Below, piece after piece: positions 54,453 through 57,270 of a stretch of DNA of 64,000 bases. Under the pieces are notes generated by a model that was given only the letters and a program-made list of their open reading frames with translations, was not told the DNA's origin and did no database searches. Source of the DNA: Candidatus Oxydemutator sp. (GTDB taxonomy: Bacteria; Pseudomonadota; Gammaproteobacteria; Poriferisulfidales; Oxydemutatoraceae); contig OZ241883.1 of assembly GCA_965203445.1 (NCBI GenBank), positions 192,001 through 256,000 on the forward strand, in the 5' to 3' direction. Positions within the stretch are counted from its first letter, which is position 1. The number at the start of each line of letters is the position of its first letter. The position numbers and the translations under genes were made by a program.

Positions 54453-55562
54453 TCATTGACGCCGGACGTCGAAATACGCCTCCTCCGAGATCCGGTTCCA
54501 GCCGCCGACGCCCGCCAGAAACTCGCGGTAGGAAGCATAGGTGCGCCGCGCCAGATCGTTGGCGCCCGCGACCTCCTCGACCACCTCGGCGGACAACTCG
54601 CGGAAACGCGCGAGCACGTCGGCGGGAAACGCGCGCAGGTGCACGCCGTGCTCGTCGCGCAGCACCCGCAACGCGCCGAAATTGCGCGCCGTGTAATCTG
54701 CCAGCATGTCCTGGTTGGCGGCCTCGCAGGCGCGGCGCACGACCGCGCGCAAGTCCGGCGGCAACTGGTCGAACGCGGCGCGGTTGACGAAGCACTCTAT
54801 CGTCGTGCCCGGCTCGTGCCATCCGGGGTAGTAGTAGTACCTGGCGACCTTGTGCAAGCCGAACGCCAGGTCGTTGTACGGGTTGGTCCATTCGGTCGCG
54901 TCTATGGCCCCGGTCTGCATGGCCGTGAACAACTCGCCGCCCGGCAGCGCCACGGCGACGCCGCCGGCGCGCTCCAACACTTTGCCGCCGAGACCCGGGA
55001 TGCGCATCTTGAGCCCCCTGAGGTCGGCGACGCCGTTGATCTCGCGGTTGAACCACCCGCCCATCTGCATGCCCGAATTGCCGGCCGGCAACGGCATCAG
55101 ACCGAACGGCGCGTACGCCTCCCGCCACAGTTCGAGGCCGCCGCCCTTGTAGAGCCACGCGTTCATCTCCAGCGCGTTCATGCCGAAAGGCACGGTCGAG
55201 AAGAAATTGAACGCCGGGTCTTTCCCCTGCCAGTAATAGGCGCTGGCGTGCCCCATCTGCGCGACGCCGCCACGCACCGCGTCGAACGCCTCGAACGCCG
55301 GCACCAGTTCGCCGGCGCCATAGACCTTGACTTCCATCCTGCCGCCCGAGGTGCGCGAGATCAGCCGCGCCAGGTGCTCGGCGCCGGTGCCGAGACCGGG
55401 AAAATTCTTCGGCCACGCCGTGACCATCTTCCAACGGACGGTCTCGGGCGCGGGCGCGACCACGGCCGTGTCTGGTTGCCGCTGCTCGCGCTCGCAGCCG
55501 GCAAGCGGCGCGCCGAGCAACGCGCCGGCGGCGGCGCGGTGAAGGAATTGTCGTCGTTTCAC
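54453..55562 (-). CDS. TRAP substrate-binding protein (DctP/TakP family) with Tat-like signal
   Basis: MKRRQFL, WKMVTAWP, QMGGWF, KMRIPGLG, YYYPGWHEPG. Confidence 0.92.
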   Translation of the reverse strand: MKRRQFLHRAAAGALLGAPLAGCEREQRQPDTAVVAPAPETVRWKMVTAWPKNFPGLGTGAEHLARLISRTSGGRMEVKVYGAGELVPAFEAFDAVRGGVAQMGHASAYYWQGKDPAFNFFSTVPFGMNALEMNAWLYKGGGLELWREAYAPFGLMPLPAGNSGMQMGGWFNREINGVADLRGLKMRIPGLGGKVLERAGGVAVALPGGELFTAMQTGAIDATEWTNPYNDLAFGLHKVARYYYYPGWHEPGTTIECFVNRAAFDQLPPDLRAVVRRACEAANQDMLADYTARNFGALRVLRDEHGVHLRAFPADVLARFRELSAEVVEEVAGANDLARRTYASYREFLAGVGGWNRISEEAYFDVRRQ

Positions 55563-55601
55563 GGGGTGCTCCTATGGGGAGAAACTACCGGTGATTATAT
55601 A

Positions 55602-56387
55602 GGGAATTATGTATCAAAATCTACAGAATGATTGTGAAGTAATTGAATTCGCATAGGAATATGACATGATGTCTGGTGATGAAAGTTCATAGGACAATTC
55701 GATAATGTATCGTATGCCGAATACGGCAAGGCATGAGCGGCGCGTCAAGCATTATCAGAGGATGATGGCGAGGCGTCAGGGGCCGAACCGCAAGAAGGGG
55801 ATCAAGGCGTCGAACCGATGGCTACGCGCACGGTTGCTTCACCAAAGAGCGCAGGCCACGTTGCGCCATGCCAGACGGAATTGGTGTCATGGCGTATCGA
55901 GGGAAGTGGCCGACGGGTATTCTCTGGTTCATTTGGAGAAGTGGAACAATCGGGGCATGACAAGAAGCGCCCAGGGCACGAAGGAAAATCCTGGAACGAA
56001 AGTCCGTGCGAAGGCCGGACTGAACCGAGCGATCCTGGCGTCATGCTGGGGCAAGTTTCACCAGTGTCTGGATTATAAGACGAATACGAACTACGTAGAT
56101 CCTGCATATACGAGTCAGACGTGCAACAAGTGCAGGCACGTGGACAAAAAGAATCGGAAGACGCAGTCGGTATTTATTTGTACCGATTGCGGTTATCGGG
56201 ATAATGCGGATGCGAATGCCGCATTGAACATATTGGCCTCCGGGAATGGGGCTGCTGGGCGTGATAAAACCAGAGGGGAGACTCATCCGGTGGAACGTCA
56301 AACGGGTATCAACAACCTACAGAATCTGGAGCACGACCGGCACAACGGTTCCCGCGCCAAGTCTGTAGATTTTGATACATAATTCCC
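55602..56387. mobile_element. non-autonomous TIR element (IS1595-like ends) carrying truncated tnpB
   Basis: Perfect inverted repeat GGGAATTATGTATCAAAATCTACAGA at 55602-55627 and 56362-56387 (30 bp with flanking TATA); lower GC than neighbours; no transposase. Confidence 0.85.
55679..56382 (+). pseudogene. tnpB: TnpB-family RNA-guided nuclease, internally deleted
   Basis: ORF 55705-56382: ASNRW, RuvC-II LE, AKAGLNRAIL..CWGKF, VDPAYTSQTC..C, CxxCG...NADANAALNI; RuvC-I and REC absent; stub MKVHRTIR* at 55679. Confidence 0.85.
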
Positions 56388-56565
56388 TATAATAAGCTCC
56401 ATGCGTCCCGTCGGACACACGACCTGAGAAAGAGTCAATGACCATCGAGCCACCGTCGCTTTCGTCATTCGTCGGCCAAATGCTACCTTTGGTCGGCGCG
56501 CGGGCCATGCCTGATCGAAGCGCACGTATAACCCGGTTTTCTGCAACGATTAACCGGAGAATACA

Positions 56566-57270
56566 ATGACGGAAAAACACAACGAAGCAGTGCGGGAAGC
56601 CTTGCCGCAAGAGATCGAATGGGGGGCACCCATTACGCGAGGCGAGCACAAACGGAGCTCGGACGAACTTGAAAAGAAGTTCGTCGGGCTGCATGGCGAG
56701 CTCAGGGGAGACATAAAGGACCTGCGCGTCGAACTCATCGCGAGCATCGCCAGACTCGACAAAGACATCGTCAACTTGCGCGCCGAACTCAAACAGGACA
56801 GCGCCAACTTGCGCGCCAAACTCAAAGAGGAATTCGGCGAGCAACACGCCAAACTCAAAGAGGATTCCGATAAGCGATACGCCGAACTCATGGCGCACAT
56901 CGCCAGACTCGACAAGGACATAGTCCGCTTGCGCGCCGAACTCATAGAGGAAATCGGCAAGCAACTCGCCAAACTCAAAGAGGATTCCGATAAGCGATAC
57001 GCCGAACTCAAAGAGGATTCCGATAAGCGATACGCCGAACTCAAAGAGGATTCCGATAAGCGATACGCCGAACTCATGGCGCACATCGCCAGACTCGACA
57101 AGGACATCGTCCACTTGCGCGCCGAACTCATGGAGGAAATCGGCAAGCGCCACGACGAACTCAAAGACTATATCGCCAAATCCCAAATCAGGATGCTTCT
57201 GGCCACCACCGCTATCTTTGCCGGCGTAGCCGGCAGCATGTTGGCCAGTATATTGGCCATAGTTCGCTGA
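56566..57270 (+). CDS. repeat-rich coiled-coil protein with C-terminal TM anchor
   Basis: PITRGE, repeats AELKEDSDKRY and IARLDKDIVxLRAEL, C-terminal hydrophobic helix; GGAGA RBS. Confidence 0.75.
   Translation: MTEKHNEAVREALPQEIEWGAPITRGEHKRSSDELEKKFVGLHGELRGDIKDLRVELIASIARLDKDIVNLRAELKQDSANLRAKLKEEFGEQHAKLKEDSDKRYAELMAHIARLDKDIVRLRAELIEEIGKQLAKLKEDSDKRYAELKEDSDKRYAELKEDSDKRYAELMAHIARLDKDIVHLRAELMEEIGKRHDELKDYIAKSQIRMLLATTAIFAGVAGSMLASILAIVR

Follow-up and report, generated by a model that had tools for sequence, protein, structure and literature searches.

TnpB, an RNA-guided endonuclease, is thought to pay its way in IS605 and IS607 elements because excision leaves no scar. Why TnpB persists in cut-and-paste DDE transposons, and how its guide RNA deals there with an inverted repeat and with a target duplication, are questions discussed chiefly for the eukaryotic Fanzors. 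Here, we describe a family of bacterial TnpB elements, one copy of which (786 bp, positions 55602-56387) lies in a 64,000-nt stretch of DNA from Candidatus Oxydemutator sp. (contig OZ241883.1, positions 192,001 to 256,000; hereafter the window), and whose right end folds into a hairpin that incorporates part of the terminal inverted repeat (TIR). Window coordinates are positions on the forward strand, on which all features of the element lie, and coordinates of other copies refer to the host genome, a 2.38-Mb single contig (G000:C1) that is 100% complete.

Six DDE-associated TnpB branches with inverted terminal repeats (DDE-1 to DDE-6) have been described, in which the 3' ends of TnpB genes lie at most 250 bp from the transposon end and solo TnpBs share ends and are presumably moved in trans (Altae-Tran et al. 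2023 PNAS, PMC10691335). The main text of that study names IS630 and has 0 occurrences of IS1595, and a 2026 review lists ISL2, IS630, and IS1031 (PMC13565253). The family in the window likewise has TnpB inside inverted repeats and solo TnpBs that share ends with transposase elements, and may already be one of DDE-1 to DDE-6; it differs in having a scaffold model, whereas the main text of PMC10691335 gives no omega-RNA structure for the six branches. The omega-RNA, or right-element RNA (reRNA), of TnpB and Fanzor2 is reported to contain a pseudoknot in which the last bases of the scaffold pair with a site ~130 nt upstream (in ISXfa1, U-130/A-3; PMC10711439). As with the ISDra2 and ISXfa1 omega-RNAs, the scaffold proposed here extends over the 3' end of tnpB to a point at or near the right boundary, with a candidate pseudoknot linking its last bases to a region about 100-140 nt upstream, and the full protein of the family aligns end to end with ISDra2 TnpB. 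IS200/IS605 and IS607 elements, in contrast, are described as having no TIRs or target-site duplications (TSDs) and as using Y1 or serine transposases (PMC13565253, PMC10711439), whereas this family has TIRs and 8-bp TSDs, and its terminal stem is built from the TIR rather than being a TnpA-recognised subterminal hairpin as in IS200/IS605.

The reRNAs of Fanzor1 and Fanzor2* are encoded in TIR/TSD transposons of eukaryotes (Yoon et al. 2023 NAR, PMC10711439), whereas the host here is bacterial and the shell of IS1595 type. In the Fanzor scaffolds presented there, the TSD is folded in as well, and Fanzor1 is without a pseudoknot; the window family keeps a candidate pseudoknot that would use the last 6 nt of the TIR, and because its 8-bp duplication varies in sequence, the duplication is more likely to be guide than scaffold, unlike in Fanzor. 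Elements of the IS1595 family resemble those described here in their inverted ends beginning with GGG, their 8-bp TSD, and their passenger genes, and the host's autonomous copy encodes DDE_Tnp_IS1595. The window element differs in being without a transposase and in carrying as passenger an RNA-guided nuclease whose putative RNA would use the element end. DDE-associated TnpBs and Fanzor scaffolds containing TIRs are already in print; a literature search on TnpB with IS1595, with TIRs and TSDs, or with a DDE transposase, which covered articles without their supplements, found no description of a prokaryotic DDE- or IS1595-type omega-RNA.

The hairpin at the right end of the window element is probably the stem at the 3' end of an omega-RNA scaffold, which belongs to a TnpB family residing in IS1595-type cut-and-paste shells. 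RNAfold predicts the 88 nt from 56300 to 56387 to form one long imperfect hairpin (hairpin C, 56306-56378; -28.3 kcal/mol, z -4.17), and an equal fold was obtained in 0 of 200 dinucleotide shuffles. The pairings that had been proposed from the letters alone are formed in this fold, namely, GUAUCAA (56306-56312) with UUGAUAC (56372-56378), CUACAGA (56317-56323) with UCUGUAG (56362-56368), and inner pairs of the UGG/CCA, GC/GC, and ACCGG...CCGGU type. The distance of 9 nt from the hairpin to the end of the element was also correct, the end being the CCC at 56387 by family comparison. The 5' arm lies upstream of the right TIR (56362-56387), and the 3' arm is the inner part of that repeat (56362-56378). 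The left end of the element yielded no comparable fold (z -0.11). The 181-nt stretch originally suggested for folding (56230-56410) gave a weaker result than the 88-nt stretch, with z -1.88 and 8 of 200 shuffles as good.

Comparison with homologues showed that the hairpin is a fixed component of the family. All 14 host-genome copies share one order at the right end, consisting of the motif (A)GCGTCAAATGGATAC, the hairpin, and ATAATTCCC, with the 3' arm formed by TIR positions ~10-27 and the 5' arm located just upstream. The hairpin is kept in 14/14 copies despite unrelated inner-TIR sequences (e.g., AATCTACAGA, TTTGACAA, CACCACCA, and ATTGTATGC). To compare folds independently of alignment, 100 right ends were collected, and removal of duplicates and of 35 ends without the AGCGTCAA anchor (≤2 mismatches) left 54 distinct hairpin regions; their median z was -2.6, with z < -2 in 38. 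The original prediction had named a lack of stem covariation among homologues as a result that would speak against it. Compensatory change was found instead: six of the first seven base pairs from the hairpin base have changed on both sides (column counts), and cognate duplexes were stronger than swapped ones, with a mean of -10.98 kcal/mol for an arm and its own TIR versus -5.81 kcal/mol for non-cognate combinations (TIRs <60% identical, n = 1510), and 29 of 49 cognate duplexes beat at least 95% of the non-cognates. The 5' arm thus changes in step with the inner sequence of the right TIR, which is specific to each lineage, and this bears out the proposal that the scaffold is co-adapted to the TIR.

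The pattern of substitution favours a structure acting as RNA rather than as DNA. Hairpins read in the tnpB sense contain 119 G.U pairs versus 13 A.C 1x1 mismatches, and the minimum free energy of the sense strand is below that of the antisense strand in 46 of the 54 hairpins. A duplex protein-binding site or a cruciform would give no such bias, so the G.U excess and the sense-strand preference favour RNA. The protein tail that follows KRQMDT is variable both in length and in sequence even though the nucleotides fold, which argues against a coding constraint.

Hairpin C is the last part of a larger conserved structure. RNAalifold and inspection of an alignment of 38 right ends (A1) yielded helices S1, P2, P3 enclosing P4 and an inner hairpin, and hairpin C. 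In the window copy, S1 is formed by AAUGCGG (56203-56209) and CCGCAUU (56219-56225), inside the RuvC-III coding region, P2 (GCCUC...GGGGC) by 56236-56240 and 56248-56252, with GGGAAU (56242-56247) in its loop CGGGAAU, and P3 (GACGU/GCGUC) by 56258-56262 and 56295-56299, enclosing the inner hairpin CCAGA...UCCGG. S1 is 95.1% paired, and its pair 107/149 in A1 occurs as GC (26), GU (5), AU (4), CG (2), and UA (1); P2 is 97.0% paired, and four of its five pairs have changed on both sides. Across A1, 91.9% of cells are paired versus at most 47.9% when partners were slid, and both partners have changed in 15 of 33 pairs. Covariation scored 0.298, compared with at most 0.092, and none of 500 shuffles reached the observed score. 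The larger alignment A4, which holds 83 distinct rows on the alignment of covariance model R1, gave 93.4% paired cells, compared with at most 56.4% after sliding; both partners have changed in 22 of 29 pairs, and covariation scored 0.494 versus at most 0.102. Conserved secondary structure with covariation, as expected of an omega-RNA, is therefore present in both alignments.

Model R1, built from 18 homologous right ends as had been recommended for checking the prediction, with the window copy excluded, found the window copy at 82.5 bits (56215-56387; E 1.8e-18; model positions 1-128 of 128), spanning P2 to the element end. In the host genome, R1 has 15 full-length matches (E ≤1e-16), each of which ends at the last base of its element, and overall there were 92 matches in 93 sources. 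The matches run in the sense direction from within tnpB to the right end of the transposon, which is the position of an omega-RNA. Promoter and terminator scans detected nothing above shuffle expectation.

A further pairing may tie the scaffold to the transposon boundary. The P2 loop GGGAAU (56242-56247) has its complement in the final six bases of the element, AUUCCC (56382-56387, ATTCCC in the right TIR), and although this pairing lies outside model R1, 95.1% of A4 cells pair. Among 100 right ends, the combination of loop and terminus was GGGAAU/AUUCCC (perfect) in 37, GGGAUU/AUUCCC (one U.U mismatch) in 33, GGGAGU/AUUCCC (G.U wobble) in six, GGGACU/AGUCCC (compensated) in five, GGGACA/AGUCCC (5 bp) in four, and GGGAAU/GUUCCC (U.G wobble) in three; GGGACU/AGCCCC (one mismatch) and GGGAUU/AGUCCC (U.G wobble) were found twice each, GGGAAC/GUUCCC (compensated) once, and six more combinations once each, and in one end the loop was not located. 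GGGAAU/AUUCCC is hence a candidate pseudoknot, plausible but not proven. If it is real, then the transposon boundary would also be the exact end of the scaffold, and the guide would have to be drawn from beyond the element.

The proteins of the family are recognizable TnpBs. The host genome holds about 15 relatives of the window element, and 13 copies have open frames of 406-439 aa, stop to stop; an intact copy lies at 174463-175774. The full protein P0001 matches NF040570 (RNA-guided endonuclease TnpB) at 200.5 bits (cut-off 100), and its residues 9-374 align with ISDra2 TnpB (8bf8/8exa). Nine diverse relatives all retain the RuvC residues D184, E274, and D365 as well as four zinc-finger cysteines, and an intact RuvC D-E-D is present in 13 other host-genome copies and in relatives. 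Relatives of the family were found in 21 of 61 related genomes searched. A wider search confirmed 454 of 595 candidate stretches, and among the best 80 of these, which were kept, family relatives occur in metagenome-assembled genomes (MAGs) labelled sponge-associated, from Gammaproteobacteria, Rhodothermales, Paracoccaceae, Caldilineaceae, Dadabacteria, and Thermodesulfobacteriota. This distribution over at least six phylum- or class-level groups suggests horizontal spread of the family within the sponge-associated habitat. One Rhodothermales genome holds dozens of copies of the TnpB family together with 59 matches to the IS1595 transposase. Within the host genome, a sub-lineage (copies 1233732, 2133905, 25458, 1131112, and 895628) has two C-terminal insertions in TnpB, of ~10 and ~12-19 codons, which lengthen the RNA too, between S1 and P2 and inside P3. 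In several lineages (left ends in L030, L035, L038-L041, L057, L062, and L069), the inner left TIR holds a consensus -35 hexamer, TTGACA, upstream of tnpB; these bases have a double use, as a putative promoter at the left end and, as UGUCAA, as a hairpin arm at the right end.

The shell that surrounds these genes is, by its sequence features, of the IS1595 TIR/TSD type and not of the IS200/IS605 type. All family copies begin with GGGAATTATATA(C) and end with the reverse complement. An 8-bp duplication is exact in eight of the 14 host-genome copies and has one mismatch in two and two mismatches in two others, the window copy and one further copy being unmatched; across genomes, 54 distinct sites have an 8-bp duplication with at most one mismatch. 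A 2616-bp element in the host genome (1978350-1980965; L021 551-3166) has the same ends as the TnpB family and a duplication, ATCAGAAA, and encodes a DDE_Tnp_IS1595 transposase (1979910-1980848; 1.3e-43; NF033547 205.9 bits). It is the sole intact source of IS1595 transposase in the genome, which contains a 167-aa fragment besides. No match to the Y1 TnpA (Y1_Tnp) was found in the 100%-complete host genome, whereas control genomes gave matches. The TIRs shared by the window element and the transposase element are as expected of a transposase-less IS1595 derivative, and the TIRs and TSDs of the family, together with the lack of a Y1 match, do not fit IS200/IS605 (IS1341 group), whose members are inserted by a Y1 TnpA on the 3' side of a fixed tetra- or pentanucleotide. 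The original prediction of an omega-RNA in the window is partly supported: a conserved, covarying structure lies over the 3' end of tnpB, but the shell is of IS1595 type, and the window copy is without an intact TnpB.

IS1595 transposase homologues were also detected in five of five other TnpB-bearing genomes tested, several of them with the same termini and 8-bp duplications. In a Rhodothermales MAG (G061), a composite of ~3.7 kb that contains both transposase and TnpB is flanked by identical octamers in two of six loci read. Hence, the IS1595 transposase can use the right end of the TnpB element. These two composites (L194 145-3849 and L199 142-3859) comprise an IS1595 transposase of 318 aa, internal copies of the ends, and a TnpB of 423 aa, with the duplications atctgtaa and taacaaat, respectively, and the four other loci read have the same left part and octamers that do not match. 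The passenger of the 2616-bp host element is a 436-aa N6/N4 DNA methylase fused to an HNH domain. Solo and miniature forms of the ends occur as well, including a 163-bp miniature that shares the inverted ends but lacks coding capacity (113341-113503; L025), a solo end at ~1821064, and a miniature of ~170 bp with the duplication aaaaataa (L152).

The insertion sites carry a signal that differs between the two sides. Immediately ahead of the duplication, G stands in 40, A in 12, T in two, and C in none of the 54 distinct sites, whereas no bias is seen at the mirror position behind it (A18 C7 G12 T17). The first duplicated base is never G (A34 C11 T9), and duplication positions 2, 3, and 7 are A or T in 52 of the 54 sites. 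The terminal 13 nt are symmetric between the two element ends, so the transposase by itself should not produce a signal that differs between strands. The asymmetric G would fit a transposon-associated motif (TAM) read by TnpB beside a guide that starts at the duplication. An omega-RNA is expected to carry about 16-20 nt of flanking DNA as its guide, and for the window copy, a scaffold ending at 56387 would place the putative guide at 56388-56407; this 20-mer has no other match in the host genome at up to four mismatches. As an alternative guide, the variable hairpin arm acting against the left TIR was considered and ruled out, the matches being imperfect, with bulges typical of structure.

From these computed results (structure, covariation, sense-strand bias, IS1595 ends with duplications, and an asymmetric target-site signal), we infer the following course for transcription, processing, guide identity, TAM, and cleavage. 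An RNA made in the tnpB sense would overlap the last ~190 nt of the element and fold, in order, into S1, P2 with its GGGAAU loop, P3 enclosing P4/P5, and hairpin C, in which the upstream arm would pair with inner TIR sequence at the right end. The six terminal bases, AUUCCC, would pair with the P2 loop, such that the scaffold would end exactly at the boundary and the adjoining DNA, that is, the target duplication and flank, would serve as the guide. TnpB from intact copies would then cut unoccupied sites in which the duplicated octamer is directly preceded, on its 5' side, by a purine-rich motif with a final G, and the elements themselves would be moved in trans by an IS1595-family DDE transposase. 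A broader proposal, which we put forward tentatively and hold to be somewhat doubtful, is that a bacterial TnpB/omega-RNA module has been rebuilt for a DDE (IS1595) transposon, with the last stem and the pseudoknot taken from the TIR, RNA folding constraining TIR evolution, the guide starting at the variable 8-bp duplication and not behind it, the asymmetric G with its purine run acting as the TAM, and the RNA-guided nuclease shaping the orientation and survival of insertions. If this is true, the folding constraint would explain why inner TIRs are lineage-specific and co-vary with the upstream arm, and the insertions that the nuclease acts on in this way would be those of a symmetric cut-and-paste transposase. 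The family offers a compact bacterial case, with nucleases of ~400 aa, many recent insertions, and a defined scaffold model, in which covariation gives a direct reading of the constraints that RNA and transposase place on the same DNA. The predictions are that the scaffold ends at CCC, that the guide consists of the duplication and flank, and that the TAM ends in G.

Two other roles for the hairpin have to be weighed against that of an omega-RNA stem. It could work at the DNA level, with the upstream arm as an extra inverted subterminal copy of the TIR, or as a nested miniature element, that is used in transposition. The arm does resemble the left TIR in orientation and sequence, copy 431038-432296 carries a hairpin at its left end too, and the 2616-bp element of the host also has internal TTGTAGATT-like TIR copies and a short hairpin (7 bp) by one end. 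In the window, moreover, the antisense strand of the hairpin stretch folds as well as the sense strand or better (-34.7 versus -28.3 kcal/mol). Across the family, the G.U excess and the predominance of better sense folds point the other way, and the inner TIR differs completely between lineages that share one genome with a single intact IS1595 transposase, which makes a common protein site unlikely. The hairpin is also confined to the tnpB 3' end, where it is embedded in a larger co-varying structure, and its 5' arm has been inherited in every lineage rather than inserted; a function in DNA is, on balance, very unlikely. A nested miniature inverted-repeat transposable element (MITE) of ~90 bp, the alternative offered with the original prediction, is ruled out for the same stretch. 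The 5' arm is ancestral to the right end of every family member, that of the window copy is homologous to the 5' arm of the 1233732-1235101 lineage, and the difference from this nearest lineage is a GC-rich insertion that makes the apical loop ~36 nt larger; a nested MITE is therefore not the explanation.

Highly improbable, too, is a role limited to the tnpB mRNA, whose structured 3' end would serve as a stabiliser, a terminator-like element, or a translational regulator, with no guide function. The structure does overlap the end of the open reading frame (ORF), and the stop codon lies in the TIR, which such a role would accommodate, but no T-run follows the hairpin, and TnpB belongs by sequence to an RNA-guided nuclease family and has its catalytic triad intact. 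The layout, with several stems and a candidate boundary pseudoknot, is moreover as described for TnpB and Fanzor2 reRNAs (PMC10711439).

Several observations nonetheless weigh against the omega-RNA interpretation. In the pseudoknot, most of the 33 right ends with a U.U mismatch come from one Rhodothermales genome, two more right ends have an A.C mismatch, and independent compensatory events are few, about two. Alignment A4 was fitted to the model structure, which favours the paired counts of all helices except the pseudoknot. The 35 right ends dropped from the folding test belong mostly to a Rhodothermales clade, four of the 54 kept are mis-bounded long stretches, and fixed 60-nt windows give a modest contrast between the two ends (right end more stable in 39 of 52; median z -1.04 versus -0.19). 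Neither the window element nor a full copy matched a relevant Rfam family (E up to 10). With regard to the TAM, G also precedes the left ends of transposase-bearing elements in one genome (17/17) and could thus reflect a preference of the transposase rather than a TAM; in a transposase-only control from one Rhodothermales genome, two of 17 resolved copies had a TSD of their own, most copies being parts of larger composites. For the window copy itself, TnpB is truncated and lacks the intact RuvC D-E-D, the inner hairpin within P3 has one A.C mismatch, and no 8-bp target duplication is present (ATTATATA versus TATAATAA, five mismatches), on account of which this copy may be non-functional.

We see a nearly even chance that the window hairpin is an inherited relic of a dead element, a reading that concerns this copy alone and is compatible with the omega-RNA explanation for the family. 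Besides the truncated TnpB, the missing duplication, and the A.C mismatch, the mosaic make-up of the element and the 36-nt loop insertion speak for a relic, as does an R1 score of 82.5 bits compared with 112-141 bits for intact copies. On the other side, all scaffold helices and both pseudoknot strands are present, the two TIRs are 100% identical over 30 nt, and 13 intact TnpB genes in the host genome could act in trans. An RNA from the window copy could act only with TnpB supplied by such other copies.

The window copy is an internally deleted, mosaic, TnpB-only transposon (full family copies measure 1252-1377 bp). It is missing approximately positions 104-665 of full copies, and with them TnpB residues 1-191, which comprise the WED/REC part and the RuvC-I aspartate D184. 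The only gene inside the element is the tnpB remnant, and the element has no transposase gene of its own. The remnant ORF (55705-56382, 225 aa) corresponds to about residues 192-401 of the full protein, over which it is 76% identical to P0001, and it matches Cas12f1-like_TNB (3.5e-16) and NF040570 (109 bits, model positions 225-388). The left TIR, GGGAATTATGTATCAAAATCTACAGA (55602-55627), has two matches in the window versus 0.00 expected, as does the 28-nt core of the inverted repeat. The repeat is perfect over 30 nt (55598-55627 and 56362-56391) and extends four flanking bases (TATA) beyond the family ends. The ends of the copy are nearest to the 1233732-1235101 lineage and to a solo left end at 2003425-2003522 (98% identity), and its core is nearest to the 1720225, 825336, and 2269951 lineages. 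The copy is accordingly a decayed, mosaic derivative without transposase or nuclease in which the scaffold is still kept.

The solo left end 2003425-2003522 is on the minus strand and, with 98% identity to the window left end, stops after ~97 nt. Its flanking octamer, TAGAATAA, matches the window right flank, TATAATAA, at seven of eight positions, a hint that this solo left end and the window right end were formerly the two borders of a single element, later split by recombination. A search of family genomes with window positions 55200-56800 found only the dctP side conserved in same-genus genomes, which left no definable empty site. On the downstream side of the element, a gene (56566-57270) that has no counterpart beside dctP in same-genus genomes encodes 234 aa with repeated AELKEDSDKRY / LRAEL heptad-like units and a C-terminal hydrophobic tail. 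On the other side, the left end of the element is 39 nt upstream of the start of a gene for a tripartite ATP-independent periplasmic (TRAP) transporter DctP-like protein (54453-55562, minus strand) and hence sits in the predicted promoter or leader region of this gene.

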